Shown: positions 5,677 through 54,944, counted from the first letter of the stretch. The stretch: DNA of 58,578 nucleotides from Vampirovibrio sp. (GCA_021323475.1 JAJQJM010000002.1:1-58578), one strand, 5' to 3'. The notes: generated from the letters alone by a model not told the origin. Program-made: numbers and translations.

Positions 5677-6978
5677 CTACGGGGTGGCAACAGAATACTG
5701 AAGCGCGGTATACAAATCCTCTTTGAAAACCGGGGATAACGTGGTGTAAAACGAGAGGGGCAATGCTTCCAGCGGGAGTGATTGCTGGATGGCCTGCTGT
5801 ACCGCTTGCCCGGTTATCATATAAGCATCCCGAAACGGTACGCCCTTTTTAACTAGGTAATTTGCCAACTCCGTCGCGTTCAGGTAGCCTTCCTTTACGC
5901 AAGCGGTCATACGAGCCGCATTGGGAGTCAGCGTTTTGATCATGGACGCAAGAGCCTGTAGACAGAGTTTCAGGGTGTCGACCGTATCGAACAGACCTTC
6001 TTTGTCCTCTTGCATGTCTTTATTATACGCAAGCGGCAGCGCTTTCATAAGCGTTAGCGCAGCTAACAAACTTCCATATACCCGACCGGTCTTGCCGCGT
6101 ATCAACTCGGCCAAATCAGGGTTTTTCTTCTGGGGCATCATGCTGCTGCCGGTAGTATAGGCAGCATCCAGCGCCACAAAATTAAATTCCTGGCTGCACC
6201 ACAGCACCAATTCCTCACAAAAACGGCTGAGATGCATCATCACAATCGAAGCCGCGCCGAGAAACTCAAGCACATGATCCCGATCCGACACCGCATCCAG
6301 CGTATTCTGCATCACACCATGAAAGCCAAGTTGCTCGGCCACCATGTTGCGGTCCAGCGGAAAACTGGACCCGGCCAACGCACCGGCCCCCAAAGGGCAT
6401 ACCATCATGCGGCGGCTGCAATCCTGCAATCGCTCTCTATCCCGTTGTAACATGGCATGATAAGCCATCAGGTGCTGACCGAACGTGACCGGCTGTGCGC
6501 GCTGCAAGTGCGTATAGCCCGGCATCAGCGTATCCCCGGCTTGCTCGGCTTTTTCTTCCAACGCTTGCTGAAGATTGAACAATAAATCCTCAATCGTCTG
6601 GATCTCGACTTCCAGATACAACCGCAAATCCGTCGCCACCTGATCGTTCCGGCTACGGCCGGTATGCAGCTTCTTACCCGCCTCTCCGATGCGGCGGGTC
6701 AGCTCCATTTCCACAAAGGTGTGGATATCCTCAACCTCCAGATCAATCGCCAGCTTGCCGCTGTCCAGATCGGTCAAAATCGCTTGCAGACCGACCACCA
6801 TCGCTTCGGATTCCAAAGCGGAAATAATGCCTTGTTTTCCCAGCATGGCGGCATGCGCAATACTGGCCCGAATATCGTATGGATACAGACGCTGATCGAA
6901 CGAAATGGAGCGGTTCAATTGCTCCGTGACCGGGTCTACGTTGCCGTTAAACCGGCCCTGCCATAGTTTGTTGCTCAT
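5677..6978 (-). CDS. argH: argininosuccinate lyase
   Basis: The N-terminus reads LWQGRF and the fumarate-lyase signature GSSMMPQKKNPD is present. The start overlaps the argG stop in a 4-nt ATGA. Confidence 0.95.
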   Translation of the reverse strand: MSNKLWQGRFNGNVDPVTEQLNRSISFDQRLYPYDIRASIAHAAMLGKQGIISALESEAMVVGLQAILTDLDSGKLAIDLEVEDIHTFVEMELTRRIGEAGKKLHTGRSRNDQVATDLRLYLEVEIQTIEDLLFNLQQALEEKAEQAGDTLMPGYTHLQRAQPVTFGQHLMAYHAMLQRDRERLQDCSRRMMVCPLGAGALAGSSFPLDRNMVAEQLGFHGVMQNTLDAVSDRDHVLEFLGAASIVMMHLSRFCEELVLWCSQEFNFVALDAAYTTGSSMMPQKKNPDLAELIRGKTGRVYGSLLAALTLMKALPLAYNKDMQEDKEGLFDTVDTLKLCLQALASMIKTLTPNAARMTACVKEGYLNATELANYLVKKGVPFRDAYMITGQAVQQAIQQSLPLEALPLSFYTTLSPVFKEDLYTALQYSVATP

Positions 6979-8231
6979 ACGGTTGCTCCTGCCAATTCAG
7001 CGGTTTGGCCTGTTTTTTGATGCATGAGGGCCCGCACTTTAGATGGTAACCCGTACAAGGTAATGAACCCTTCCGCATCGCTGTGCCGGTACAGCTCACC
7101 GGTGGTAAAGCTGGCCAGCTCTTGATCGTACAACGAATATGGAGACTGCACCCCGGCGGGAATGATATTGCCCTTATAGAGCATCAGTTTGACCGTACCG
7201 GTTACCGTTTTTTGAGTCGCATCCACAAACGCATCCAGCGCTTCCCGCAACGGCGTAAACCACAGGCCGCCATAGACCAGCTCGGAATATTTAATGGCAA
7301 TTTGCTGTTTCATACTCTTGGTCTGGGCATCCAGGCACAACTGTTCCAGCAAGCCATGCGCCCGGTAGAGCAAGGTTCCGCCCGGCGTTTCATAAACGCC
7401 TCTGGCCTTCAGGCCCACTACCCGGTTTTCCACCATATCCAGAATGCCAATGCCGTGCTTGCCGCCCAGCGTGTTTAATTCAATCAGCAAATCTTCCGGT
7501 GATAAAGCCACTCCATTCACCTGCGTGGGAATGCCCTGCTCAAACGCAATTTCAACCAGTTCGCCTTCAGCAGGTGCTTGTTGCGGCGTTGAAGACAATT
7601 GCAACAGGTGCTCATAATTGGGCGCGTTGGCGGGGTTTTCCAGCTCCAGTCCCTCATGGCTCAGGTGCCACAGGTTTTGATCTCGACTATAACTTTGTTC
7701 TTTTTTAACCGGGTATTCGATGCCTTTACTTTCCAGGTACGCAATCGCATCCTCCCGAGATTGAATACTCCACAACCGCCACGGGGCAATAATCTTGAAG
7801 TCCGGCGCCAACGCCTGAATGGCCAACTCGAACCGCACCTGATCATTCCCTTTACCGGTAGCGCCGTGGCAAATAATAGTGCTGCCTTCCTGCCGGGCAA
7901 TTTCAATCAGTTTTTGGGCAATCAGCGGGCGCGCCATTGCGGTGCCCAACAGGTAATACCCTTCATACACCGCGCCGGCTTTCAGGCACGGGAAAATATA
8001 ATCGCTCACGAACTCCGCCTGGACATCAACCACAAACGCCTTGCTGGCGCCGGAAGCCAAGGCCCGCTCCTTTAAGTAGGTCATATCATCAGGCATGCCG
8101 ACATTCACGCATACGGCAATAATCTCGTACGCATAATTCTCTTTTAGCCACGGGATGATAGTAGTGGTATCCAACCCACCGGAATATGCCAAGACGACTT
8201 TTTCAGGTTGACTGTTTTCAGATTGCTTCAT
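6975..8231 (-). CDS. argG: argininosuccinate synthase
   Basis: The AYSGGLDTT ATP-binding motif is present and AGGAG RBS lies upstream. Confidence 0.95.
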   Translation of the reverse strand: MKQSENSQPEKVVLAYSGGLDTTTIIPWLKENYAYEIIAVCVNVGMPDDMTYLKERALASGASKAFVVDVQAEFVSDYIFPCLKAGAVYEGYYLLGTAMARPLIAQKLIEIARQEGSTIICHGATGKGNDQVRFELAIQALAPDFKIIAPWRLWSIQSREDAIAYLESKGIEYPVKKEQSYSRDQNLWHLSHEGLELENPANAPNYEHLLQLSSTPQQAPAEGELVEIAFEQGIPTQVNGVALSPEDLLIELNTLGGKHGIGILDMVENRVVGLKARGVYETPGGTLLYRAHGLLEQLCLDAQTKSMKQQIAIKYSELVYGGLWFTPLREALDAFVDATQKTVTGTVKLMLYKGNIIPAGVQSPYSLYDQELASFTTGELYRHSDAEGFITLYGLPSKVRALMHQKTGQTAELAGATV

Positions 8232-8270
8232 TTGTAAAACTCCTTCGATTTGATTGAATAAAATTTGAAA

Positions 8271-9524
8271 TTAATTTTCCGACAGCGCCGACTCCAAAAT
8301 AGCAAGGGCTTCATCAATGTGCGCTTCGGTTGCAATCAGGGGCGGCACCAACCGAATCACATTCGGCCCAGCGCCAACCACCAGCAAGCCTTGCGCCATG
8401 CATTTTTCGACAATGGGCGCTACAGGTTGACTGAATTCAATGCCCTGCATGAATTTCATGCCGCGTACATCCACAATTTTTTCCGGATATTTCACTTTGA
8501 GAGCGGTTAGCTTTTGGGACAGATAAGCGCCTTGTTCCATCACATTCAGCAACCCATCCTGCTCTAAAAGCACGTTCAAAACCACCTTCGCCGCGGTGCA
8601 GGCTAACGGGTTTCCGCCGAACGTGGAGGCATGATCCCCCGGATTGAAAGACGGAGCTACTTTCGCGGATGCCATCATCGCACCAATCGGGAAACCGCCA
8701 CCCAGACCTTTTGCCAGCGTGATAATATCCGGCCGGACGCCCGTCCATTCAAAGGCGAACAACTTGCCGGTCCGACCGATGCCGGTCTGTACCTCATCGA
8801 AAATCAACAGAATATCCTGTTCATCGCAAATGGAACGAATCACTTTCAGGTAATCGGGATTCGCCAGCTTAATGCCGCCCTCGCCCTGAATCGGTTCAAT
8901 CACGATCGCGCAAGTTTGCTCGCTGATGGCGGCGTTCAGGGCTTCCAAATTATTGATGGGCACATGCACAATATCCGGCACCAGGGGCGCATAACCCGCA
9001 TGGTACTTGCCTTGCCCGGTGAGGGACATCGCCCCGTAGGTTCTGCCATGAAAACTGTTCTGCATGGCAATCACCTGGGTGCGCTGCTCATTGTAGCGGG
9101 AAACGCTATACTTGCGCGCCAACTTCAGGGCCGCTTCAATCGATTCAGCACCGCTGTTACAAAAGAACACCTGAGCAAAACCGCTGGCCTCAGTCAATGT
9201 TTCGGCCAATTCAATCTGCGGGGTGTTCCAATATAAATTGGAACAATGCATCAATTGGGCACATTGAGTGGCCAACGCCTCGGTTAAAGCCGGGTGCGCA
9301 TGGCCCAAGCTATTAACTGCGATGCCGGATACAAAGTCCAGATAACGTTTGCCCTGGATATCCCATAAGTAGCAGCCTTCGCCCTTTTCCAGCACCACGG
9401 GAAAATGTTGATAAGTGTTCATCACCGCTTGCTGGCCCCGGCTTAGCCAATCGGTTTGCAACGGGCTTTCCAGAATAGTTGTTTGCGCTACAGCCAATCC
9501 CTCCGATACTAACGCTGCGTTCAT
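8271..9524 (-). CDS. argD: acetylornithine aminotransferase (class III PLP)
   Basis: The DEVQTGIGRTGKLFA motif is present. The start overlaps the argB stop by 4 nt. Confidence 0.9.
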   Translation of the reverse strand: MNAALVSEGLAVAQTTILESPLQTDWLSRGQQAVMNTYQHFPVVLEKGEGCYLWDIQGKRYLDFVSGIAVNSLGHAHPALTEALATQCAQLMHCSNLYWNTPQIELAETLTEASGFAQVFFCNSGAESIEAALKLARKYSVSRYNEQRTQVIAMQNSFHGRTYGAMSLTGQGKYHAGYAPLVPDIVHVPINNLEALNAAISEQTCAIVIEPIQGEGGIKLANPDYLKVIRSICDEQDILLIFDEVQTGIGRTGKLFAFEWTGVRPDIITLAKGLGGGFPIGAMMASAKVAPSFNPGDHASTFGGNPLACTAAKVVLNVLLEQDGLLNVMEQGAYLSQKLTALKVKYPEKIVDVRGMKFMQGIEFSQPVAPIVEKCMAQGLLVVGAGPNVIRLVPPLIATEAHIDEALAILESALSEN

Positions 9525-10486
9525 CTTTTTCCTCCCTCATTCATAAATTGATAAGACAATTCCCCGGATTTTGAACCGGCGTTTTGAATCATGGTGCCAA
9601 CCCCGTGATGTGTAAAAATTTCCAGCAACAAGGCGTGAGGCACCCGACCGTCCAGAATATGCACCGATTTCACCCCTTGGCAGACCGTTTGAATTGCACT
9701 CTGAACCTTGGGAATCATCCCGCCGGTAATTTGCCCGTCCAGAATGGCCTGCTCCGCTTCCGCCACCGTCAGGGTGGAAAACACCGATTCCGGATTTCCC
9801 GCATCCGCCAACACACCGGGCACATCGGTTAAATAAACCAGTTTTTCCGCCTGCATGGCCTGCGCAATGGCAACCGCCACTTCATCCGCATTAATGTTAT
9901 AGCTTTGGCCCTGCCTATCCATGCCCACGGACGCAATTACCGGAATCATCCCGCTTTCCAACAATACGTGAATCAACTTTGGGTTCACCTGTTGCACAGA
10001 ACCAACCCAGCCCAAATCCGGGCCATTGGTTAGCTTTTTTTGAGCCACTAACAAATGGGTATCTTTTCCGCACAGCCCTACCGCCTGAACGCCCAGCGTT
10101 TGCAATTGCGCCACGATGCGTTTATTGACCTGACCCACCAGCACCATGTCCACCACCGCAATGGCATCATCATCCGTGACTCTCAAGCCGGAAACAAACT
10201 GGGGCTGCTTGCCCAATTGCTGAAGGGTCCGGCTAATTTCCGGCCCGCCGCCATGCACCACAATCGGCTGGATGCCCACCGTCCGCATCAGGGCAATATC
10301 GCTCAGGATGCTTTGGGCGGCAGGGCCTTCCGCCATAACGCTTCCGCCATATTTCACCACCACGGTTTTACCGTGAAACGTCTGCAAATAAGGCAGCGCC
10401 TCAACCAGAATCTCCGCTTTCCTGGTAGCCAGCTCGCGAATTTGAGCCGGACTGGTTCCCTCTTTAATAGTCGCTTGTGCTGACAC
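9521..10486 (-). CDS. argB: acetylglutamate kinase
   Basis: The VVVKYGGS motif is present. The start is GTG, with AGGAG 7 nt upstream inside the end of argJ. Confidence 0.9.
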   Translation of the reverse strand: MSAQATIKEGTSPAQIRELATRKAEILVEALPYLQTFHGKTVVVKYGGSVMAEGPAAQSILSDIALMRTVGIQPIVVHGGGPEISRTLQQLGKQPQFVSGLRVTDDDAIAVVDMVLVGQVNKRIVAQLQTLGVQAVGLCGKDTHLLVAQKKLTNGPDLGWVGSVQQVNPKLIHVLLESGMIPVIASVGMDRQGQSYNINADEVAVAIAQAMQAEKLVYLTDVPGVLADAGNPESVFSTLTVAEAEQAILDGQITGGMIPKVQSAIQTVCQGVKSVHILDGRVPHALLLEIFTHHGVGTMIQNAGSKSGELSYQFMNEGGKR

Positions 10487-10489
10487 GTT

Positions 10490-11776
10490 TTAGCTCCTGT
10501 AGCTACTGTTAATGCTGACGTATTCATGGCTCAAGTCACAGCCCCAGGCCGTCGCCGTTTCGGCGCCCGCCTGCAAATCAACCTGGAATATAATGGTCTT
10601 TTCCTGCAAAACCGTTTTGGCTTGCTCTTCACAGAACGCCAGCGGCTTTCCGTCCTCCAGCATTAAAATACTGCCGGCCTCGCTGCATAGTTCCAAACGG
10701 ACGCATTCCGGATTGAACGCAACACCAGCAGCGCCCATTGCCGCCAGAACCCGCCCCCAATTGGCATCTTCCCCATATACGGCGGACTTGACCAGGCTGG
10801 AGGAAATTACCGATTTCGCCAACGTTTGGGCCACTATTTTAGTGGGTGCATGTTTAACGGTTACGGTTAAAAACTTGGTAGCCCCCTCACCATCCTTGGC
10901 AATGGCCTGGGCCAGATGCATATTCACCAAATCCAGCGCCTGCCTGAATTTGGCATAATTCACACCCTCGCAGCTAATGGGCGGATGATCTGCCATGCCG
11001 TTCGCCAGAACCGCTACCATGTCGTTGGTGCTGGTATCTCCGTCTACGGAAATCATGTGGTAACTGTCATCCACGCTCTCCTTCAGGGCTTTTTGCAGCA
11101 GATCCTGTTCAATGTTGGCATCCGTGGTAATAAAGGCCAGCATGGTCGCCATATTGGGATGAATCATACCGGAACCCTTCGCCATGGCACCTATGGTCAC
11201 CATAGTGCCGTCCAGTTCAAACTGCACCGCAATTTCTTTGGTAAACGTGTCCGTGGTTAAAATGGCTTCCGCCGCCTGAGTGCCTGAATTTTGGCTAGCT
11301 TCCAAGTTCCCGCCCAATTGAGCAAGACCCGTCAACAACGTATCAATTGGCAATGGCACGCCAATCACGCCGGTAGAGGCTACCAATACCTCCTCTGGCT
11401 GGCATTGGAGGCAGCTGCTTGCCATTTCCGCCATTTGCCGGGCATGAATCATGCCGTTTGCCCCGGTGCAGGCATTGGCGTTTCCGCTATTTACCACAAT
11501 GCCATAAACAGTATTGCCGCCATTCAATACCTGCTGACTCCAAAGCACCGGCGCCGCCTTGACCGTATTGGTCGTAAACACAGCCCCTACGACCGCAGGT
11601 TTTAAACTGGCGATCATTGCCAAATCTTTTTTCTTCTTTTTAATGCCCGCATGCAGACCGTTGGCCAGAAACCCTTGTGGTGCGGTAATGCCACCGGCAA
11701 TATAATGAAAGCAGTCCAGACCTTCGGCGCTTACCTGCTGGCCAAGATTGGGTAAATCCTGAATCGTGAGTGCCAT
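10490..11776 (-). CDS. argJ: bifunctional ornithine acetyltransferase / N-acetylglutamate synthase
   Basis: The self-cleavage site ATMLAFITTD is present. AGGA lies 8 nt upstream of the ATG. Confidence 0.95.
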   Translation of the reverse strand: MALTIQDLPNLGQQVSAEGLDCFHYIAGGITAPQGFLANGLHAGIKKKKKDLAMIASLKPAVVGAVFTTNTVKAAPVLWSQQVLNGGNTVYGIVVNSGNANACTGANGMIHARQMAEMASSCLQCQPEEVLVASTGVIGVPLPIDTLLTGLAQLGGNLEASQNSGTQAAEAILTTDTFTKEIAVQFELDGTMVTIGAMAKGSGMIHPNMATMLAFITTDANIEQDLLQKALKESVDDSYHMISVDGDTSTNDMVAVLANGMADHPPISCEGVNYAKFRQALDLVNMHLAQAIAKDGEGATKFLTVTVKHAPTKIVAQTLAKSVISSSLVKSAVYGEDANWGRVLAAMGAAGVAFNPECVRLELCSEAGSILMLEDGKPLAFCEEQAKTVLQEKTIIFQVDLQAGAETATAWGCDLSHEYVSINSSYRS

Positions 11777-11824
11777 ACGTTGTATCCTTTCGTACTACGA
11801 CCTTGTATTGCTGAACGTCATGCT

Positions 11825-11861
11825 AAAAACCCCTGGGCTTCGTTGGAATCGAGCTCAGGGG
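11825..11861 (-). terminator. intrinsic terminator/attenuator hairpin between the Arg-rich leader ORF and argJ
   Basis: Minus-strand RNA is CCCCUGAGC-(14-nt loop)-GCCCAGGGG followed by UUUUU. Stem arms are at 11853-11861 and 11830-11838, and the U-run is at 11829-11825. Confidence 0.6.
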
Positions 11862-11886
11862 TTTTGTAAATTCCGGTTCTTGTTCG

Positions 11887-11988
11887 TTAGTGGCGATAAC
11901 GAGAACGGCAGGTCAACATCCCGAGCCCGAAAGTACGGCGGCTACGGCGACGTCGGATTTGAGTATTTTCAAAAAAGGAGATCAACAT
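11887..11988 (-). CDS. candidate arginine leader peptide (33 aa, 9 Arg codons)
   Basis: My own reverse-strand translation gives ATG..TAA = MLISFFENTQIRRRRSRRTFGLGMLTCRSRYRH. Codons 12-18 are CGA CGT CGC CGT AGC CGC CGT. A weak AGG lies 6 nt upstream of the ATG. The ORF sits between a candidate promoter and a terminator just upstream of argJ. Confidence 0.55.
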   Translation of the reverse strand: MLISFFENTQIRRRRSRRTFGLGMLTCRSRYRH

Positions 11989-12018
11989 GTCCAACCTGCC
12001 AATTGATAGTGCCTAGCT

Positions 12019-12047
12019 AAATTACCTTTAAACCCGGCTATTGTCAA
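12019..12047 (-). promoter_or_regulatory. candidate internal promoter for the leader-argJBDGH unit
   Basis: Minus strand: consensus TTGACA (12047-12042), 17-nt spacer, TAATTT (12024-12019). It lies directly after the argC stop. Confidence 0.4.
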
Positions 12048-12068
12048 CAAAAAAACAGCAGGCCGTTA

Positions 12069-13115
12069 TTACACCGGAAACAGAGGAATCGCCTCCAGGC
12101 CGGCAGTCTCTTCCAGATCCAACATCAGGTTCATGTTTTGGATTGCCTGTCCCGCAGCGCCTTTAACCAAATTATCAATGGCCGCTACCACAATAATCCG
12201 GCGGGTCCGCTCATCCAACCGAAAGGCGATATCACAGTAATTGGAGCCCTTGATCCACCGGGTTTCCGGAAGCATTCCGGGCGGCAGAAGCCGGACAAAC
12301 GGTTCCGCATGATAAGCGGCTTCGTACGCCTGCCGTACCTCTTGTTCGGTTACGGAATCGGTTAAATTGGCATAGATAGTGGCCAGAATACCCCGGTTCA
12401 TCGGCACCAGGTGAGGCGTAAAGTTAAGCGTAACCGGCATATTGGCAATGTTGCCCAACGTCTGCTCGATTTCCGGTGTATGCCGATGTGAGGCAACGCC
12501 ATACGCTTTAATGGACTCGTTGCATTCGCTGAAGTGATGCCCCAGGGCCAACGCGCGCCCAGCACCCGTCACGCCGGATTTGGCATCGATGATAATGCTA
12601 TTCGGATCAATCCAGCCTTTTTGCAGTAAGGGCGCAATCGCTAACGCGCTACACGTGGGATAACAACCAGGATTGGCAATCAACCGGGCCTTTTTAATTT
12701 GTTCGCGGCACCACTCCGGCAGTCCATAAATAGCTTGGGCCAATAGCTCCGGTTTGGGATGCGCCAGCCCGTACCAGTGTTCGTATACGTCCGCGCTCTG
12801 CAGGCGAAAGTCCGCGCCTAAATCCACTACGCGGGTTCGGGTCAGCAAGTCCGCATCAATTTTTTGGGCCACATGCCCATGCGGCAAAGCGAAGAATAGA
12901 ACATCCGCCTGCTCTACCAGCGGCTCAATGGCCTCTTCTTCACAAATCAAGGGGATGCGCTTGGCGAAATTGGGATAAACCTGCTCCAAAGGCTGCCCCA
13001 CGTAACTGTGGGAGGTAATGGCCGTCAGTTCCACCTGGGGGTGCTGGACCAACAGCCGTACCAATTCCGCACCCGCATATCCGGTTGCCCCTACCACGCA
13101 TGCCTTTACCGTCAT
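12069..13115 (-). CDS. argC: N-acetyl-gamma-glutamyl-phosphate reductase
   Basis: VVGATGYAG and the catalytic NPGCYPT motif are present. I placed the start at ATG 13115, which has GGAG 9 nt upstream. The ORF is open from TTG 13130. Confidence 0.95.
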   Translation of the reverse strand: MTVKACVVGATGYAGAELVRLLVQHPQVELTAITSHSYVGQPLEQVYPNFAKRIPLICEEEAIEPLVEQADVLFFALPHGHVAQKIDADLLTRTRVVDLGADFRLQSADVYEHWYGLAHPKPELLAQAIYGLPEWCREQIKKARLIANPGCYPTCSALAIAPLLQKGWIDPNSIIIDAKSGVTGAGRALALGHHFSECNESIKAYGVASHRHTPEIEQTLGNIANMPVTLNFTPHLVPMNRGILATIYANLTDSVTEQEVRQAYEAAYHAEPFVRLLPPGMLPETRWIKGSNYCDIAFRLDERTRRIIVVAAIDNLVKGAAGQAIQNMNLMLDLEETAGLEAIPLFPV

Positions 13116-13208
13116 CCAATCCGTCTCCAATCACAATTTAAGGCCATAACGACCATATCGTCGTTTTTTTGAGGCGTGACAACAGCCTCAACCTGCTCGC
13201 AAGAGCGC

Positions 13209-13217
13209 ATTATAGCA
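13209..13217 (-). promoter_or_regulatory. extended -10 promoter for argC
   Basis: Minus strand reads TGCTATAAT (TGn + perfect TATAAT), ~90 nt upstream of the argC ATG. No good -35 is present. Confidence 0.45.
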
Positions 13218-13334
13218 AAACAACCGCAGCAATCGAGAACTTAATACGGAAAATTTTGAATCCCGAGTTTTTAAACGGGCACCGGAGCCGGATGAATTGG
13301 CAGAAGTAAACAAGGGTTCTAGCTTACAGACTAA

Positions 13335-13362
13335 TTGTATCTGCCCGCAAAAGGACTACAAT
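13335..13362 (+). promoter_or_regulatory. sigma70-type promoter of the small acidic protein gene
   Basis: TTGTAT (13335-13340), 16-nt spacer, TACAAT (13357-13362). Confidence 0.5.
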
Positions 13363-13446
13363 AGAGCCTGCTTTGCGCACCGGGCCGGCTCAAACCCGTA
13401 GTAGGCCCGTCAGTAACACATCCGCAGGCAAACAGGAGGACACCTC

Positions 13447-13746
13447 ATGACTGGACGTGAATCATCCGACCCATCGATTACAGAACCCTTCCAGGGGGCT
13501 AACCCGCCTGAGGCGGACCTGGGCAGACCGTCCCGCGAAGAGGAGGAGCGCGAAGAGAACAAGAATATTGAGGATTATATGTCGAACCTTGGCGCGGGCA
13601 CCGGTGTGGATATAGGACCCGGAGCCGCCGGAGAAATGGGCGGAGCAGCGCGAGAGCCCGACCAAGCCCCTCCCAACAAAAAGGAAACTTCCGAGGCATC
13701 GGTTGAGTACCCGGATAGCGGCGATTTGCCCCAAATCAACCGTTAA
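13447..13746 (+). CDS. small acidic, Gly/Pro/Glu-rich, probably disordered protein (99 aa)
   Basis: AGGAGG lies 8 nt upstream of the ATG. The gene has its own promoter and an 11-bp perfect terminator. I recognise no domain. Confidence 0.6.
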   Translation: MTGRESSDPSITEPFQGANPPEADLGRPSREEEEREENKNIEDYMSNLGAGTGVDIGPGAAGEMGGAAREPDQAPPNKKETSEASVEYPDSGDLPQINR

Positions 13747-14177: not shown

Positions 14178-16748
14178 ATGCAGCAGGATGCCAACGCCCT
14201 GGCCAAACGCTGGGGAATTTATATTGCTATGGCCGGAAGCATTACATTGGCGACTTCATTGCCGATGCTGGCCGCCCAACCCGTCAACACCATGAATGAT
14301 GGACGCATTGTTAAGGGTGGTGAATACTACAACACCGCAGACGGCAAAACAACCTTCACCAACTCCGGCTCCGGGGGACTTTGGGTGCAAGAAGGCGTTA
14401 CCGTCCGAGGGCTGGAAGCGAACGCCAATGGCAACCTGACCAATAATGGCGGCACCCTTCACTTTTTAGCCCCCGGCAGCGTGGTTCGGATTGACGGCAA
14501 GGTAGATGTCAGCGGTGTTCTAAGCGGCAACGGCGGCTATCTTGGCGACGGCGGAAAAGTCTTTGTGGATTCCGCCTTCCTGTACCAGAGCGGGCACATT
14601 TACGCCAATGGTAATAACGGCGGATTGGTGCAAATGAATGTCGGCTCCGCCGTGTTTGCTCCCGGCTCCAGTATTGAAGCCAAAGGGTTCGGCGGGAACG
14701 GAGGGGCCATCGCCATCAATTCCGACGGACTGGTCAAGATTTCCAACCGGGCATTACTGGACAGCTCTGGCCGGGTGGCGGGAACCTTCGACAGCAACCT
14801 GATTAACATTGAAGGCGGGGCTATCTACAATGCGGGCATTCTCCGCGCCGACGGCGTGGTACCCACCTCCGCATCCGGAGCAATTCCCGGCACCCGTGGG
14901 GGCACCATCCGGCTGGTGGCAACCGGAAACACCAATTTGAACCAAATGGCATCCACCTTGAATGACGCCGCCAACGTATCCCCGAATGACCCGGTGCAAA
15001 CGGCCACTATTTCCCAAACGCAAGCCCAGCAATTGAAAACATCCGCCAATCTCATGCGCATCGCCCAGGACGGCAGTATCGTGAATGAGGCTCCCAGCAG
15101 TCAAAACCCGACCGGCGGCCTGATCAGCGCAACCGGGAGCCAAGGGCCGGTGGCAGATAATAATGATTATATTCAAGATTCCACCCAGCGGGCCGGCGAT
15201 GGCGGCACCATCAGCCTTACCGCCATGAATCATGTGACCAATCGGGGCAAAGTAACCGCCAGCGGCGGAGATGGCCTGCTGGGCGACACCTCGACAAATG
15301 GGGGCAACGGTGGAGCGATTGTGGTACTTGCCAACGGCAGCATCATCAACAGCCAGGATACTCAGAGCGGCTATCGGGGCCGCTATAACGCCAATGGAGG
15401 CCGGGGCGGCAAAAGCCTGAACACAACCCCCGCATCCACGGGCGGCAATGGCGGCTTGCTGGCATTCAGCTATGGTGACCAAATGATTAACAGCGGCGTC
15501 ATTCAAGCCATCGGTGGCGTTGGCGGTGCGGGAGGCAGTGCGCCGACAGTGGGAACGGGCGGCGCTGGCGGGCAAGGCGGACTCATCGTGTTGAGCGGCA
15601 ACGCGAACCCTATTGGCGGTGGCTACCTGGATGCTAACGGCGGATGGGGTGGATCTGGCCTCGTGGGCGGAAATGGAGGCCTCGCAGGAACAATCGTGGC
15701 TCCGGTCCCCAATCAGTTAAGCCATGGCCAAATCGCATTTCAGTCCGACGGAGGAAAGGGGGCCAGCTTAGGCCAAAGTACACCGTCTCCCATTGGGCAG
15801 ACTCGACCTCTAAACCAAATCACGGCCGAGAACGAATTGCTGACCCACGGCGAAAATCTGATTCTGCTGACCCGAAACGAAGGCGGGTTACGCAAGTTTA
15901 CATTAAGAGATCGGGCGGAGAGCGCCAAAATACGCTCCGTGTTGGATCCGAAAGGCCTCGGTGTGGCAAGCCGGGCAATTGCGGCCAAGGAAGCTCCGGG
16001 CACTACCTTGCCCTACCGCAACCTCATTATTGGCAGCAGCGCGAATGACCTGTCATTGGTGCTAAACCGGGAACCCGTGTTTATCACCCCGGATTCCGAG
16101 GTGAACCTGTACCGGTTGAATACGTTAACAGTCCTGAATAACGGGTATACCACCAATACCTTCGGCTGGAGCGTGGGCGATCTCACCCACCAAACCGGCG
16201 GCAGAATCTCCATATTGGCCACGGGCGATATCGAGAACGGGACAGGCTTCAACACCTCCGGTCGGCTGTCCGGCGGCAGCATTAACCTGGCAAGCAAAAC
16301 CAACATCAGCAATTACGATGTGCTGGGAACCAGTAACCCGAACGATGGCACAGGCGTCCACGGCGGCAGCCTGATGATGAATGCCCGCCAAAGCCTGTTC
16401 AATGCGGGATTCAGGACAATCAGCACCAGCGGCGGCATGATTGGCGGAACCCAACGTTTTAATGCCAATGGCGATTTCCTGAACCTGGGCGACTTTTATT
16501 CCATAGCCTACAACACGGCGCCCGGTACACCTATTACCGGGGGAAATATTCATGTTCGGGCAGGCACCGTGTACCAGGGCGGTAGCGACGACTACAACCC
16601 CGTCTTTGTGCAGGCCAACGCCATGAGCAATAACCAGGGCTACGGCGGATACGTCTCCATCCATGCACAAACGGTGGATAACACCCTTAGCCAGATTGAG
16701 GCCAACGGCAGCCAGCAAAACGGAACCGTGATTACCGGATCGCCTTAG
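14178..16748 (+). CDS. secreted glycine-rich parallel beta-helix repeat protein (adhesin/Pmp-like)
   Basis: The N-terminus looks like a Sec signal (IYIAMAGSITLATSLPMLAAQP). GGAI motifs recur (GNGGAIAINS, FDSNLINIEGGAIYNAG, GNGGAIVVLANG), and there is a long GGxGG-rich tract. RBS AAGGAAGGA lies upstream. Confidence 0.7.
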   Translation: MQQDANALAKRWGIYIAMAGSITLATSLPMLAAQPVNTMNDGRIVKGGEYYNTADGKTTFTNSGSGGLWVQEGVTVRGLEANANGNLTNNGGTLHFLAPGSVVRIDGKVDVSGVLSGNGGYLGDGGKVFVDSAFLYQSGHIYANGNNGGLVQMNVGSAVFAPGSSIEAKGFGGNGGAIAINSDGLVKISNRALLDSSGRVAGTFDSNLINIEGGAIYNAGILRADGVVPTSASGAIPGTRGGTIRLVATGNTNLNQMASTLNDAANVSPNDPVQTATISQTQAQQLKTSANLMRIAQDGSIVNEAPSSQNPTGGLISATGSQGPVADNNDYIQDSTQRAGDGGTISLTAMNHVTNRGKVTASGGDGLLGDTSTNGGNGGAIVVLANGSIINSQDTQSGYRGRYNANGGRGGKSLNTTPASTGGNGGLLAFSYGDQMINSGVIQAIGGVGGAGGSAPTVGTGGAGGQGGLIVLSGNANPIGGGYLDANGGWGGSGLVGGNGGLAGTIVAPVPNQLSHGQIAFQSDGGKGASLGQSTPSPIGQTRPLNQITAENELLTHGENLILLTRNEGGLRKFTLRDRAESAKIRSVLDPKGLGVASRAIAAKEAPGTTLPYRNLIIGSSANDLSLVLNREPVFITPDSEVNLYRLNTLTVLNNGYTTNTFGWSVGDLTHQTGGRISILATGDIENGTGFNTSGRLSGGSINLASKTNISNYDVLGTSNPNDGTGVHGGSLMMNARQSLFNAGFRTISTSGGMIGGTQRFNANGDFLNLGDFYSIAYNTAPGTPITGGNIHVRAGTVYQGGSDDYNPVFVQANAMSNNQGYGGYVSIHAQTVDNTLSQIEANGSQQNGTVITGSP

Positions 16749-48471: not shown

Positions 48472-50886
48472 ATGATTAACCTCACCACGTTTTCGGGCGT
48501 CAATCGTACGCAGCTACAAACACGTAAAAAAACCGAATCCAAACAGAAACCGGAAGCCCAGTCTCACGCTTCAACCGGCCCTAAAACCCTATTGGCAAAG
48601 CCCTCTGCCGGGCTTGCAAAAGTCTACTTTGGCGGCGTCAATCTGTCGGATGCCATTAAAGGCAGCAGCGAAGTCGCCAAACCCCAGCAACTCAAATCCG
48701 TGATGTCCATTCAGGACTATGTGGACACCATTGAGCAGCATCCACTGTTGCTAAGAAACACCGCCCAATATGCCCAGGACATGATCAACCGGGAAGGTGT
48801 CCGTAAAAAAACCAAGTACGGACGCGACATTCTGGAATACGATTTTTTTACTCACCCTCAAAACCCCGAAATGAAAGGCTTAAAAGGCAATCAGGGCTCC
48901 ATTAACGATGTGATGATGCACATTCGTGCCGCCGCCAGACGGCAGGATTTGGGCAAAAAACCCATTGTACTCATGGGGGGCCCCGGTTCCGGCAAAACCA
49001 GCATCGGTGATTTGATGGTGGACGGCTACGTGCGTTACAGCAAAACCGATGAAGGCGCTCGTTACGCCTCCAAATTGGTGAATCTGCCTGAAGATTTACG
49101 GATGGGTGAGGAATACGTAGAAGAAACCCTGGCCGATCCGTTGCTGTTTTTACCTCAGGAAATTCGTAAACAGGTGGTCAATTCCGCCAAACCCAAATTT
49201 GAAAAATTAAAACAGGAAGTCACCAAAGCCGAGGCGCAGAATGGCTCCGTTCGTCCCAATCTGTACGATTATGAAGTGGGCATTGAAGGCGACTTAACGC
49301 CGAAAACTCAATACATTATGAAACATCTGCAAAACATGTACCTGGATCAGGCCATTAAAATGCAAGGGCTGGACCGGGATGAACTGGAATCCGAGCCTGG
49401 CCAAAAACGCCTGGTAGACCTAAAGCGGCAGGCCTATCACAAAGCGCTGAAAAATCATTTGCAGGTCTATAAGTTCGAATACAATCCCAACGCGGTACCG
49501 GGTGGTATCGGCGTGTTTTCCGCAACGGATTCCAAAACGCTGAACACTGCCAAAATTAATGGCCAGGTCAACATGGTACGGCTGATGGATCTGCCGGAAA
49601 GCGATCCCCGCCGGTACGACTATGTGGACGGAGCCGCGTTCCGGGCCAATCGGGGCGTATTCCGCCTAAAAGAAATGCACAAAAACCCCGAAGCCTTCTA
49701 TCCGTTATTGCTGGACTTGGCACAAAGTCAGTTGATTGAGGTAGAAAGCGGCAACGCCACGGTACACAGTCTGATTCTGGCGGATTCCAACTTCCCGGAA
49801 CTGATTGAAAAGAAGGGCAAAGACGTGCTGACTGCCGCCATGAAGCGCCTGGATCACATTTATGTCACTCACCCGCTGGAGTTGTCTGCGGAAAAAGAAA
49901 TCCAGCACAGCCTGTTCGCGGACTTTGAAAAAGCAACGGGCGCACACGGCAAAAAAGGCCACGTAGCGCCACACACCAAAGACATTGCCGCATTGCTTGC
50001 CGTCATGTCCCGTCTCACAGTTCCAGAAGACAAATTGACGGAAGGTCCCGCGTTCCTGGCCAAAAAAGCCGCCGCCTATAACGGCGACGTGGTGGAAGGC
50101 ATTGAAGAGCAGGAAGTGAACGAATGGTATGAAAAAGGCCAAAAGGCTGATGATATCGAGCAGAAAGAAGGAATGGACGGCCTGTCGGTTCGGGAGATGC
50201 AAACCCTGACTAACCTGGTGACCAACGACCTGAACGTGCGTGATCTGAATTCCATTGACGGGTATGGTTATCTGCGCATTGTGCGCGATGTGCTGGAAAA
50301 GAACCGGCTGACCCTTTCCGATGAGATCAAGGAAAAGTCCCTGAACCTGCTGGGTGTGGCCGAACGGCAACTGGATGATCGCGTCAAGGGTGACGTGACC
50401 GAGGCATTGGCCGGTGATCCGTCTTATATGCAAAACATTTTTGATGCCTACCTGACCAACGTGATTGCCGAGAAGCGGGGCAAACGGGTGAGAGATCCGC
50501 TGACCAGCGAAATGGTGCCACCCGATAAGGACTTGATGGAAGACATTGAAAAACGCATGGGCCTGACGACTTATAACGATCGGCGCCAGTATCGGGATAG
50601 CCTGGCGGCGCGGGTCGGGATGCTAACCATGGAAGGACGTAAATACGAACTGGATAATGATCCGAAACTGAAGAAAGCGATTCTGGATCGGGCATACGCC
50701 AGAACGGTGGATCGGATTGACTCCAAAGTGCTGCTGACGTCTCATCCGAACCAGCGGGAAAAAGAACAACAAAACACGCTGGTGCAGCGCTTAATTGCCA
50801 GAGGATATAACGAGCTTACGGCCAATAACGCGCTGGCTCGCGTCAGCATGTTGGCCAAACGCGATCCGAAAATCCTGAACTCGTAG
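48472..50886 (+). CDS. prkA: PrkA-family AAA+/serine-kinase-like protein, paralogue 1 (804 aa)
   Basis: Walker A is GGPGSGKTS. FRANRGVFRLKEMHKNPEAFYPLLLDLAQ aligns with the YeaG segment CRANQGIMEFVEMFKAPIKVLHPLLTATQ. GAAGGGG RBS lies upstream. Confidence 0.85.
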   Translation: MINLTTFSGVNRTQLQTRKKTESKQKPEAQSHASTGPKTLLAKPSAGLAKVYFGGVNLSDAIKGSSEVAKPQQLKSVMSIQDYVDTIEQHPLLLRNTAQYAQDMINREGVRKKTKYGRDILEYDFFTHPQNPEMKGLKGNQGSINDVMMHIRAAARRQDLGKKPIVLMGGPGSGKTSIGDLMVDGYVRYSKTDEGARYASKLVNLPEDLRMGEEYVEETLADPLLFLPQEIRKQVVNSAKPKFEKLKQEVTKAEAQNGSVRPNLYDYEVGIEGDLTPKTQYIMKHLQNMYLDQAIKMQGLDRDELESEPGQKRLVDLKRQAYHKALKNHLQVYKFEYNPNAVPGGIGVFSATDSKTLNTAKINGQVNMVRLMDLPESDPRRYDYVDGAAFRANRGVFRLKEMHKNPEAFYPLLLDLAQSQLIEVESGNATVHSLILADSNFPELIEKKGKDVLTAAMKRLDHIYVTHPLELSAEKEIQHSLFADFEKATGAHGKKGHVAPHTKDIAALLAVMSRLTVPEDKLTEGPAFLAKKAAAYNGDVVEGIEEQEVNEWYEKGQKADDIEQKEGMDGLSVREMQTLTNLVTNDLNVRDLNSIDGYGYLRIVRDVLEKNRLTLSDEIKEKSLNLLGVAERQLDDRVKGDVTEALAGDPSYMQNIFDAYLTNVIAEKRGKRVRDPLTSEMVPPDKDLMEDIEKRMGLTTYNDRRQYRDSLAARVGMLTMEGRKYELDNDPKLKKAILDRAYARTVDRIDSKVLLTSHPNQREKEQQNTLVQRLIARGYNELTANNALARVSMLAKRDPKILNS

Positions 50887-52919: not shown

Positions 52920-54944
52920 ATGACCAGCATGACGCCAACCAGTTCCGCCACATCGCTGTTGCGGCCAGCCATTGAAAAACGCCTCCACACAAAGTCGGTT
53001 AAATTCAAAGGTGATGAGCCTGCCAAACCGATCGAACAAACATCAAACGATCGATTTTCCGCAACGTCAACAGATTCCGTAACCGTCGTTGCAAAACCGG
53101 AGCCTCATCCCCATACGCCTCAGGCCTCGCCTTGGCTGAAAGTGCTGGATGACATGCTGGAAAATGCGCATGCGGAACAAGAGGAAATCAACGGCATTCC
53201 GGTGGCGGAACTGATTTATATGCGGGAAAAAATCCGTCGGGCACCCAAAATCGCCCCCGTTGACGAGCAAGGCAAGGTTCGAGAATTACACCCCTGCCCG
53301 TTACCGGGTCAGCCTTCCCAACTGTGGGCCATGCTGAGCCGGGACACCATTGGCTCCGATCACCCGGATTCCAAACGGTTCTGGGATATTATCGACGGCA
53401 AAAACACGCCGAAAGATATGCTGGATAAAATTTCCAAACGGCAGGTTAAAATCGGCCCCAAGGGGCAAATCAGCTTTCCCTCCCCTAATATCAAGCGCCC
53501 GCGGATTTGGTGGGGACAGCCAGGCTCCCAGCAAAGCAAACGGGGACAGCAAGGTAAAAACGGTCAGCCGGGCCAAGGCCAGGGAATCGGCTCACATCCC
53601 GGTAAAAAAGCGGGCGACGTGATCGGCAAACGACCGGCCAAGGGCGGCAAGGGAGCCGGGCGAGAAGGCGAAGCCGGAGAAGGCGCAGGCGATTACCCGA
53701 AAGAACTATGGACGCCGCCGGTGCCGCGTTCGCAGGTAGCCAAGCTATTACAATCAGAATGGGGGCTGCCCTTCATCGAACCGCGCGGCAAGGGAAAAAT
53801 GAACCAGTTTCAGGAGTTTTGGGATCAAACCACTACGACGCCGCCCAATCTGGTTGAAAAATACCCGACGTTGAAAAACGCCATTCAACGTTCATTCGCC
53901 AAAGCCTGGTACGACAAGCCAATGAGCATGACCGAGCGCATCCGCAACGGCATGCATCCGGGCTCAGCGGCCATTCCAATCAAAGAAATACAGATTCAGG
54001 GCAACACCCTGGTGGGCAAAAAAACATTGGACAAAGCGATGGAGGAATTTCAGGGAAAAGACCTGACTTACGAGGATTTAACCAAAATCCTGACCCGTCT
54101 GGATCAAAAATATCAGGCGGCCGGTTACCCAACATCCAAGGCCATTATTCCGCCGCAACCACTGGATTCCCAGAAGCTGGTGGTTGATGTGCGCGAAGTG
54201 CGTGACACGTTTAATCCCAGGGATATTCAGGTTCACTCCAAAGATAAAGTTCGCATTGCCGCCCGTGTGGCGCCCAAGCCGGTGGCTAAAACGGCCATTC
54301 TCTACATTATGGATGTATCCGGTTCGGTCAGTAACGACATGAAGGAAATGGCACGGGTGCAGAATTATTTTCTGGATACGCACCTGATGTACCAGTATGG
54401 GTTGGTAGCCGCCCAACTGGCCAACGAAAAATACGATGACAAAAAACACTTCGGGCAAGGCGTGGTACGCCGGTTTATCGTGCATACCGATGGAGCCGAG
54501 GAAACCACCGAGGAGGAATTTTACACCACCGGGCAATCCGGCGGCACCAAAATTTCTTCCGGCTTTAAATTAGCCAAGGACATTATTGAAAAAGACTTCC
54601 CAAAGGATGAATGGAACATTTACGTGTTCTACCAGGGTGACGGAGACAATTACCAAAGCGATAACGACACCAGCATCAAACTGATGAAAGATCTGCTGGA
54701 GGACGGTGTCAATATGATTGGCTATACCCATTTAGCCCCGTATTACGAAGGCAGCACCTCCAACTCCGACGGGCTGAACCGTTGGAATTTTTACGGAGAG
54801 GTTCAGAAGCATCTGGGCGATCGCCAAAACGTTAGAACATCCATTCTGCATCGCCCGGAAATCCAGGAGTACAAGCAATCGATTCAGCGTCTGTTGGAAG
54901 AAAGCAAAAGTGGAGAAACCAAGAGCGGAGCGAAAAAGTCATGA
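52920..54944 (+). CDS. yeaH: YeaH/YhbH (DUF444, vWA-like) family protein with inserted POTRA-like module (674 aa)
   Basis: A Gly-rich GQPGQGQGIGSHPGKKAGDV..GEGAGDY tract is followed by the MIDAS-like IMDVSGSV and by GQSGGTKISS and YQGDGDN. Confidence 0.85.
   Translation: MTSMTPTSSATSLLRPAIEKRLHTKSVKFKGDEPAKPIEQTSNDRFSATSTDSVTVVAKPEPHPHTPQASPWLKVLDDMLENAHAEQEEINGIPVAELIYMREKIRRAPKIAPVDEQGKVRELHPCPLPGQPSQLWAMLSRDTIGSDHPDSKRFWDIIDGKNTPKDMLDKISKRQVKIGPKGQISFPSPNIKRPRIWWGQPGSQQSKRGQQGKNGQPGQGQGIGSHPGKKAGDVIGKRPAKGGKGAGREGEAGEGAGDYPKELWTPPVPRSQVAKLLQSEWGLPFIEPRGKGKMNQFQEFWDQTTTTPPNLVEKYPTLKNAIQRSFAKAWYDKPMSMTERIRNGMHPGSAAIPIKEIQIQGNTLVGKKTLDKAMEEFQGKDLTYEDLTKILTRLDQKYQAAGYPTSKAIIPPQPLDSQKLVVDVREVRDTFNPRDIQVHSKDKVRIAARVAPKPVAKTAILYIMDVSGSVSNDMKEMARVQNYFLDTHLMYQYGLVAAQLANEKYDDKKHFGQGVVRRFIVHTDGAEETTEEEFYTTGQSGGTKISSGFKLAKDIIEKDFPKDEWNIYVFYQGDGDNYQSDNDTSIKLMKDLLEDGVNMIGYTHLAPYYEGSTSNSDGLNRWNFYGEVQKHLGDRQNVRTSILHRPEIQEYKQSIQRLLEESKSGETKSGAKKS

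Follow-up and report, generated by a model that had tools for sequence, protein, structure and literature searches.

Arginine biosynthesis is a textbook repressor-governed pathway, under ArgR/AhrC or, in Firmicutes, under T-boxes, rather than a pathway controlled by leader-peptide attenuation, and we know of no attenuation at the arg genes of Escherichia coli. The classical attenuators are trpL, hisL, leuL, thrL, pheL and ilvL/ivbL in Proteobacteria and the trp, leu and ilv leaders in Actinobacteria. For arginine genes, the RNA-level control described is by T-boxes, attenuators being listed only for His, Thr and Phe (PMC1262725), and leader peptides were at one time known only in Proteobacteria and Actinobacteria (PMC2965389). 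Here we examine a stretch of 58,578 nucleotides (nt) from Vampirovibrio sp. (GCA_021323475.1 JAJQJM010000002.1:1-58578; the window, meaning the whole of that stretch), in which the spacer between argC and argJ holds a member of the classical attenuators that is real, conserved and, it appears, new to the literature, and whose responsiveness to arginine we infer. No description of a leader-peptide attenuator for bacterial arginine biosynthesis was found in open-access papers and bioRxiv. Rfam 15 gave no match at gathering thresholds across the whole window, and a permissive Rfam search of 11600-12300 returned one chance-level snoRNA match (E=8.4); because there is no Rfam match, the element is not a T-box, a riboswitch or a curated leader family (Trp_leader, His_leader, Leu_leader, Thr_leader and so on). 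An earlier note on this DNA, which had proposed the attenuator, had also held that arginine operons are run by repressors and not by leader peptides, a view that agrees with the lack of an Rfam match, with the T-boxes of PMC1262725 and with the literature searched.

Our reading, to which we give a probability of about 0.8, is that a ribosome-mediated leader-peptide transcription attenuator sets argJBDGH expression according to the supply of charged tRNA-Arg. Transcription would begin at a TTGACA promoter just past argC, and a ribosome would translate a 33-codon leader, a short open reading frame (sORF), while RNA polymerase moves on downstream. When Arg-tRNA is scarce, the ribosome would stall on the first Arg codons (12-16) and cover segment 1, so that nothing would keep segment 2 (UCGGGCUCGGG) from pairing with the terminator's 5' arm as it emerges; this 2:3 pairing would block the terminator and polymerase would read into argJ. 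When Arg-tRNA is plentiful, the ribosome would pass segment 2 and reach the stop codon, segment 2 would be either covered by the ribosome or re-paired with the Arg-codon region (the 1:2 hairpin), the 3:4 terminator would form and transcription would end at the U-tract near 11825. All the defining features of an attenuator that can be tested in silico are present at this locus: the sORF, the Arg cluster, a predicted terminator, a covarying antiterminator and the geometry that relates them.

Reading the minus strand and listing its open reading frames (ORFs) recovered every element that the earlier note had named (the -35 box, the sORF, a hairpin at its stop codon, the terminator and the argJ ribosome-binding site), each where it had been placed, in a compact whole of about 190 nt. 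The sequence also agrees with its account of an Arg run at codons 12-18 and three more Arg codons near the stop. The same architecture stands 5' of argJ at 12 further distinct loci, whose ArgJ proteins are 52-77% identical to that of the window, giving a set of 13 (the window, L083, L084, L085, L086, L087, L089, L090, L171, L173, L175, L001 and L015). An ATG-initiated sORF of 24-33 codons occupies the same place in all of them, with 4-6 Arg codons inside 8 codons (13/13). A TTGAC[AG] box lies 5' of the sORF ATG throughout (13/13), with 55-66 nt between the two in eight loci and 76-157 nt in the rest, and the relatives have TAnnnT-like hexamers at the same -35 spacing. Predicted terminator hairpins of -11.6 to -22.9 kcal/mol, each followed by U4-7, are likewise found at 13/13 loci, with 19-72 nt from the end of the hairpin/U-tract to the argJ start. 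Conservation in relatives had been put forward in advance as a test that could overturn the proposal; the Arg cluster, the complementary segment and the terminator proved to be kept in 12/12 other loci, which lend comparative support to an attenuator for which arginine would be the signal. Because the upstream gene is other than argC in five loci (L086, L089, L090, L173 and L015), the element belongs to argJ and not to the argC 3' end; argC is an upstream neighbour outside the attenuator's control, unlinked to the element in several relatives.

The distribution of the element is narrow. A genome-collection scan for full-length ArgJ gave relatives of at most 55% identity among the matches listed, and 2/80 loci (L001 and L015) had the element. 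A protein search returned closer metagenome ArgJ proteins (60-97% identity), and all of their contigs that were examined carry it. A metagenome scan with a clade-specific C-terminal ArgJ alignment gave distant ArgJ among the matches listed; because 0/80 of these loci carried the element, they were used as negative controls. At the other ArgJ loci (78 genome and 80 metagenome, 149 with enough upstream sequence), there was no convincing Arg-rich sORF with a terminator, and in about 135-150 ArgJ loci from other lineages the element is missing. Three loci bear labels of the Melainabacteria, Obscuribacteraceae or Vampirovibrio type; L001 is labelled Melainabacteria and L015 Obscuribacteraceae, a family placed in Candidatus Melainabacteria, order Obscuribacterales. 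The carrying lineage is probably Melainabacteria, the sister group of Cyanobacteria, here in the form of uncultured genomes. The leader-linked ArgJ proteins also have in common an extension of ~25-30 residues at the N terminus and the motif SH[ED]YV[ST]INSSYRS at the C terminus, which are not found in Firmicute ArgJ of similar overall identity; extension and motif are markers by which more members could be found.

The antiterminator and the terminator compete for one segment. In the window, UCGGGCUCGGG (11930-11920) pairs with CCUGAGCUCGA (11859-11849) in the terminator 5' arm; the earlier note had proposed 9 bp; the partner was correct and the helix proved to be 11 bp long, with a duplex energy of -20.8 kcal/mol that 0/1000 dinucleotide-preserving shuffles matched. 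At each of the 13 loci, the stretch that pairs best with the terminator 5' arm is part of the sORF, around codons 16-23, and no more than 14 nt separate the end of the Arg run from this segment 2, which in L001 overlaps the last Arg codon. The segment 2:3 duplex energies (-15 to -27 kcal/mol) are comparable to the terminator's, and the pairing is better than 975 or more of 1000 dinucleotide shuffles in 12/13 loci (p<0.025), the exception being L085 (161/1000).

Compensatory changes run through both helices, bearing out an expectation of covariation in the stems. Beyond an invariant C-run, segment 3 diverges to UGAGCUC, CGGCC, CGAGUC, AGCC, UUCCGACG, GAACC or AAGUGCC, and in every case segments 2 and 4 both change to match it, so that pairing is maintained; the variable columns contain 3-4 Watson-Crick pair types in both helices. 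A MAFFT alignment of the 13 leaders misaligned the divergent terminators, and pairs were therefore tabulated locus by locus. Cognate segments 2 and 3 formed 5.15 of 6 pairs versus 2.29 for non-cognate combinations, and the terminator helix 4.69 versus 1.97. Since energy minimisation was used to define the pairs in each sequence separately, it is the comparison with non-cognate combinations that provides the meaningful control.

A further helix joins GGCAGGU in the leader ribosome-binding region (12000-11994) to ACCUGCC (11913-11907), with a duplex energy of -15.8 kcal/mol, and is present in minimum free energy folds. ACCUGCC lies just past segment 2; relatives keep GCAGG or GUAGG upstream and a GCCUGC-like motif downstream (GCCTGC-like in the DNA of L083, L084, L086, L089 and L090). 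This helix might keep further ribosomes from starting on a leader that is already transcribed.

We simulated a ribosome by forcing unpaired a footprint that reached 15 nt upstream and 12 nt downstream of the first nucleotide in its aminoacyl (A) site, and represented the decision state by a transcript cut just before the terminator 3' arm (segment 4). In the window, the antiterminator probability in this truncated transcript was 0.12 for naked RNA and 0.89-0.93 with the A site on codons 12-16; for codons 18-27 it fell to 0.00 and for the stop codon to 0.01. The same pattern held in 12/13 loci, in which the probability was high on the Arg codons and 0 once the ribosome covered segment 2.

Judging by the sequences, the conserved part of the leader peptide is essentially the Arg cluster only: across the 13 loci the peptides are poorly conserved outside it and variable in length, and the third positions of the Arg codons vary synonymously. 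In L090, a natural frameshift relative to the closely related L089 follows the Arg run; it turns GLGML into WTRNA and alters the C-terminal half of the peptide, with the RNA segment GGACUCGG intact. Arg accounts for 22% of leader codons versus 4.8% in the long ORFs of the window. The run codons of the 13 loci are CGC (30), CGT (20), CGA (16) and CGG (2), with no AGR, so that CGU/CGC/CGA make up 66/68; CGG is avoided, although no Arg codon is used more often in the window's genes (32%). This bias suggests tuning to a single isoacceptor, the inosine-containing tRNA-Arg(ICG) that reads CGU/CGC/CGA. Across the 58.6-kb window in six frames, 7-codon windows with at least 6 Arg numbered 8, at four sites, versus 0.7 expected from shuffles; those other than the leader run and its antisense are out of frame within large genes. 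Arg runs at 53656-53690 (+) and ~50089 (-), up to RRRSRRRRRR, were rejected as leaders, being alternative frames of large genes whose hosts are a 674-amino-acid (aa) ORF at 52920-54944 and an 804-aa ORF at 48472-50886.

A looser second Arg cluster, CRSRYR (codons 28, 30 and 32; 11907-11893, minus strand), occurs only in the window, L081 and L083, and the stop-codon hairpin too is found only in the window and these two closest relatives. With the simulated ribosome at codon 29, the antiterminator was again favoured (probability 0.97), and the second cluster may act as a second checkpoint.

Several observations weigh against an arginine attenuator. The -10 hexamer of the window leader is weak, and a simple consensus scanner missed the promoter (-10 only 3/6); the leader Shine-Dalgarno (SD) sequence is weak or oddly spaced in several of the 13 loci. 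The scanner also missed the terminator, whose loop is above its 8-nt limit, and since it called neither, both calls rest on folding and on conservation in relatives. The 13 loci are mutually related, so the counts are not independent events. The 1:2 hairpin of the Arg run with segment 2, at -20.0 kcal/mol in the window and predicted in 12/13 loci at -16 to -22 kcal/mol, would fit the model, weakly supported as it is by folds that do not stand clearly above composition-matched shuffles (z -0.4 to -3.1). L086, which has only 4 Arg codons, is the exception in the simulations, its switch failing at those codons. At full-length equilibrium, the terminator dominates in 10/13 loci at any ribosome position; L175, L001 and L015 switch even then. 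The contest between terminator and antiterminator envisaged by the earlier note appeared in the truncated transcript but not, for these ten loci, in the full-length fold. Because equilibrium folds give the terminator, the switch would have to be kinetic (co-transcriptional), as in established attenuators. The model also assumes tight transcription-translation coupling in this lineage.

The same RNA switch could respond to a signal other than Arg-tRNA charging, serving as a translation-speed sensor or binding a protein or small ligand on the leader RNA. Poly-arginine nascent chains and CGA codons slow ribosomes, so slowing could occur irrespective of arginine supply, and CGA is the first run codon in 10/13 loci. 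However, the only conserved coding feature is a cluster of codons specifying the amino acid in which the regulated pathway ends, which is the signature of amino-acid-specific attenuators; were the slowdown independent of any signal, read-through would be constitutive and the terminator would serve no purpose, and the Rfam riboswitch and T-box models had no match here. We consider this explanation unlikely.

Less likely still, in our estimate, and very unlikely, is that stalling on the sORF acts through translation, mRNA stability or factor-dependent termination instead of an intrinsic terminator. There is a precedent in the Salmonella speF orf34 leader, in which consecutive Arg codons reportedly act through Rho-dependent termination (PMC6386406). 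Against this stand the conserved GC-rich hairpin with its U4-7 tract, whose 5' arm covaries with segment 2, and the argJ SD, which lies at least 36 nt 3' of the U-tract and outside the predicted alternative helices; its GAAAGGA motif is kept in L083-L086.

Scarcely any probability attaches to a functional small protein, whether the 33-aa Arg-rich peptide acting in trans or an 84-aa antisense ORF at 11766-12020 (+). Public gene calls do place antisense hypothetical proteins over the homologous region in L087, L173 and L175 (Table 1), and some leader peptides, such as peTrpL, are reported to have functions in trans. However, the sense peptide is conserved in its Arg cluster only, ranges from 24 to 33 aa and tolerates the frameshift in L090. 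The 84-aa antisense ORF was rejected, as stop-free stretches differ among relatives in frame, length (37-94 aa) and sequence; from their sequences, the antisense ORFs seem to be artefacts that owe their annotation to the CG-rich Arg run.

Equally remote, and strongly disfavoured, is a chance sORF beside a hairpin and U-tract that terminate argC or stabilise a transcript, with argJ served by an ordinary promoter of its own: the region does lie directly 3' of argC and the consensus scanners called neither signal, but the sORF, the Arg run and the 2:3 complementarity are conserved with covariation at 13 loci, five without argC upstream, Arg runs this dense are ~10 times rarer in shuffled sequence and, because the promoter is 5' and the terminator 3' of the sORF, the terminator lies inside the argJ transcript.

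The positions of the proposed arginine attenuator and its neighbours, with the leader peptides of the relatives, are collected in Table 1. The flanking arg genes were identified with NCBIfam equivalog models at scores above the curated cut-offs. argF and carAB are not in or near the cluster (argC, leader, argJ, argB, argD, argG and argH; window 5677-13130), and because there is no argF there, the gene for the ornithine carbamoyltransferase step must lie, and may be controlled, in another part of the genome. An 856-aa ORF at 14178-16748 (+), located upstream of the arg cluster, had no NCBIfam match at E<=0.001. A T7 run at 12049-12055 (minus strand) stands directly 5' of the -35 box, and L083 and L084 have T-rich tracts likewise; because no convincing hairpin precedes it, the run resembles an UP-element more than it does a terminator of argC.

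Table 1. Genes and leader elements of the window, leader peptides of the related loci and antisense gene calls
Feature	Locus	Position	Strand	Basis or remark
argC	window	12069..13130	-	NCBIfam equivalog match; stop codon 12071-12069
-35 hexamer TTGACA, leader/argJ promoter	window	12042..12047	-	sequence; 22 nt past argC stop
putative -10 TAATTT	window	12019..12024	-	17-nt spacer from -35; weak, 3/6 match
predicted transcription start	window	~12012	-	from putative -35/-10
GGCAGGU, leader ribosome-binding region	window	11994..12000	-	5' arm of long-range helix with 11913-11907
leader sORF, 33 codons + stop, MLISFFENTQIRRRRSRRTFGLGMLTCRSRYRH	window	11887..11988	-	ATG 11988, TAA ending 11887
Arg-codon run (segment 1), codons 12-18, CGA CGT CGC CGT AGC CGC CGT	window	11935..11955	-	
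segment 2, UCGGGCUCGGG	window	11920..11930	-	partner of Arg-run region (1:2) or terminator 5' arm (2:3)
ACCUGCC, codons 26-28	window	11907..11913	-	3' partner of ribosome-binding-region GGCAGGU
weak hairpin across sORF stop codon	window	11873..11908	-	-6.8 kcal/mol; Arg codons 28, 30, 32 in 5' arm
segment 3, CCUGAGCUCGA	window	11849..11859	-	in terminator 5' arm; common to 2:3 and 3:4 helices
predicted intrinsic terminator hairpin CCCCUGAGCUCG...CGAAGCCCAGGGG	window	11830..11861	-	-15.4 kcal/mol
terminator U-tract UUUUU	window	11825..11829	-	sequence
argJ Shine-Dalgarno AAGGA	window	11785..11789	-	sequence
argJ	window	10490-11776	-	NCBIfam equivalog match; ATG at 11776
argB	window	9521-10486	-	NCBIfam equivalog match
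argD	window	8271-9524	-	NCBIfam equivalog match
argG	window	6975-8231	-	NCBIfam equivalog match
argH	window	5677-6978	-	NCBIfam equivalog match
leader peptide	L083			MLIAFLNATESRRRRSRRMEGLGMLTCRSRYHH
leader peptide	L084			MFISFLATFENRRRRVRRNRGLGMFACYS
leader peptide	L085			MFISFSSMSQNRRRRVRRSTGPGMLNCCLL
leader peptide	L086			MQSRPRSFIPESRRRRLFGPGNKPAVVITEY
leader peptide	L087			MLVAFNSNIQSRRRRSRRNPAGANIAVSI
leader peptide	L089			MSLLGNCPLESRRRRVRRSHGLGMLPASD
leader peptide	L090			MSLLLGCPLIESRRRVRRNAWTRNAACPNES
leader peptide	L171			MTLLSNRFPRRPRRPYLERLGPVATS
leader peptide	L173			MFSSEFYHLRRVRRSPYARGVGNRLFSST
leader peptide	L175			MISVSITNRQPRPRRRPRTVRGLETLHL
leader peptide	L001			MQFSKSLTHNRRFPRRANALGDCSHLLI
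leader peptide	L015			MKSVSYIANTNRRSRRVRMKDSGQ
antisense hypothetical protein	L087	2302-2514	-	public gene call
antisense hypothetical protein	L173	2214-2468	-	public gene call
antisense hypothetical protein	L175	2314-2460	-	public gene call

The balance of evidence leans towards this being the first arginine-specific classical attenuator, with a Melainabacteria/Obscuribacterales-like lineage using Arg-codon stalling instead of, or besides, an ArgR-type repressor or a T-box. If so, classical attenuation would extend to the Cyanobacteria/Melainabacteria group, a conserved Arg-codon attenuator would fill a gap in the known repertoire, and tight transcription-translation coupling would be implied in this uncultured lineage. 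The element could be used to report Arg-tRNA charging and could point indirectly to coupling in organisms not yet cultured; it would also give annotators a rule for a recurring 'empty' spacer that gene callers now fill with spurious antisense ORFs.

The likeness to the classical attenuators extends to the promoter, an sORF rich in end-product codons, mutually exclusive 1:2/3:4 versus 2:3 helices, a terminator and a first biosynthetic gene, and to a geometry that puts segment 2 at 15-36 nt downstream of the regulatory codons. Unlike them, the element would sense arginine, belongs probably to Melainabacteria and, in the window, sits inside the arg cluster, after argC. A leader-peptide attenuator for lysine (AAA pathway) in Thermus thermophilus reportedly operates outside Proteobacteria, in a pathway evolutionarily related to arginine biosynthesis; it is said to differ in its lysine codons and its phylum, with no detectable homology. 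Salmonella speF orf34, for its part, reportedly acts through Rho and not through a hairpin and U-tract terminator. Among earlier cases of Arg codons used as sensors, orf34 comes closest in function: it is reported to be a short upstream ORF (uORF) with consecutive Arg codons, in which ribosome speed reports arginine and remodels the leader RNA; it differs in controlling a polyamine (ornithine decarboxylase) gene via alternative mRNA conformations, and the two have no homology (PMC6386406). Arginine T-boxes of Firmicutes (PMC1262725) similarly place a terminator/antiterminator switch that reads tRNA-Arg charging 5' of arg genes, but they bind uncharged tRNA directly and free of translation, whereas the element here has a translatable ORF and no specifier loop.

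ArgR/AhrC with its ARG-box shares with the proposed attenuator the feedback control of arginine biosynthesis genes and differs in being a protein repressor at the promoter. The ARG-box pattern TNTGAATWWWWATTCANW, allowing at most 3 mismatches, had no site at 11990-12070, around the leader promoter, or at 13130-13450, upstream of argC, and its 9 matches in the whole window versus 10.8 expected are at chance level. One ARG-box-like sequence, TTTCAAATTTTATTCAAT, with 2 mismatches, lies at 8253-8270 in the short argD-argG spacer, in a window whose match count is that expected by chance.

The fungal arginine attenuator peptide (AAP; arg-2/CPA1 uORF) also combines an upstream ORF, ribosome stalling and control of an arginine-pathway gene. 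There, high free arginine stalls ribosomes through a conserved nascent peptide and translation is repressed. The logic here is opposite: the Arg codons and not the peptide are conserved, the predicted trigger is low Arg-tRNA and the output would be transcriptional read-through. Because the mechanism itself is already known, the advance over these systems is one of scope, not of principle.

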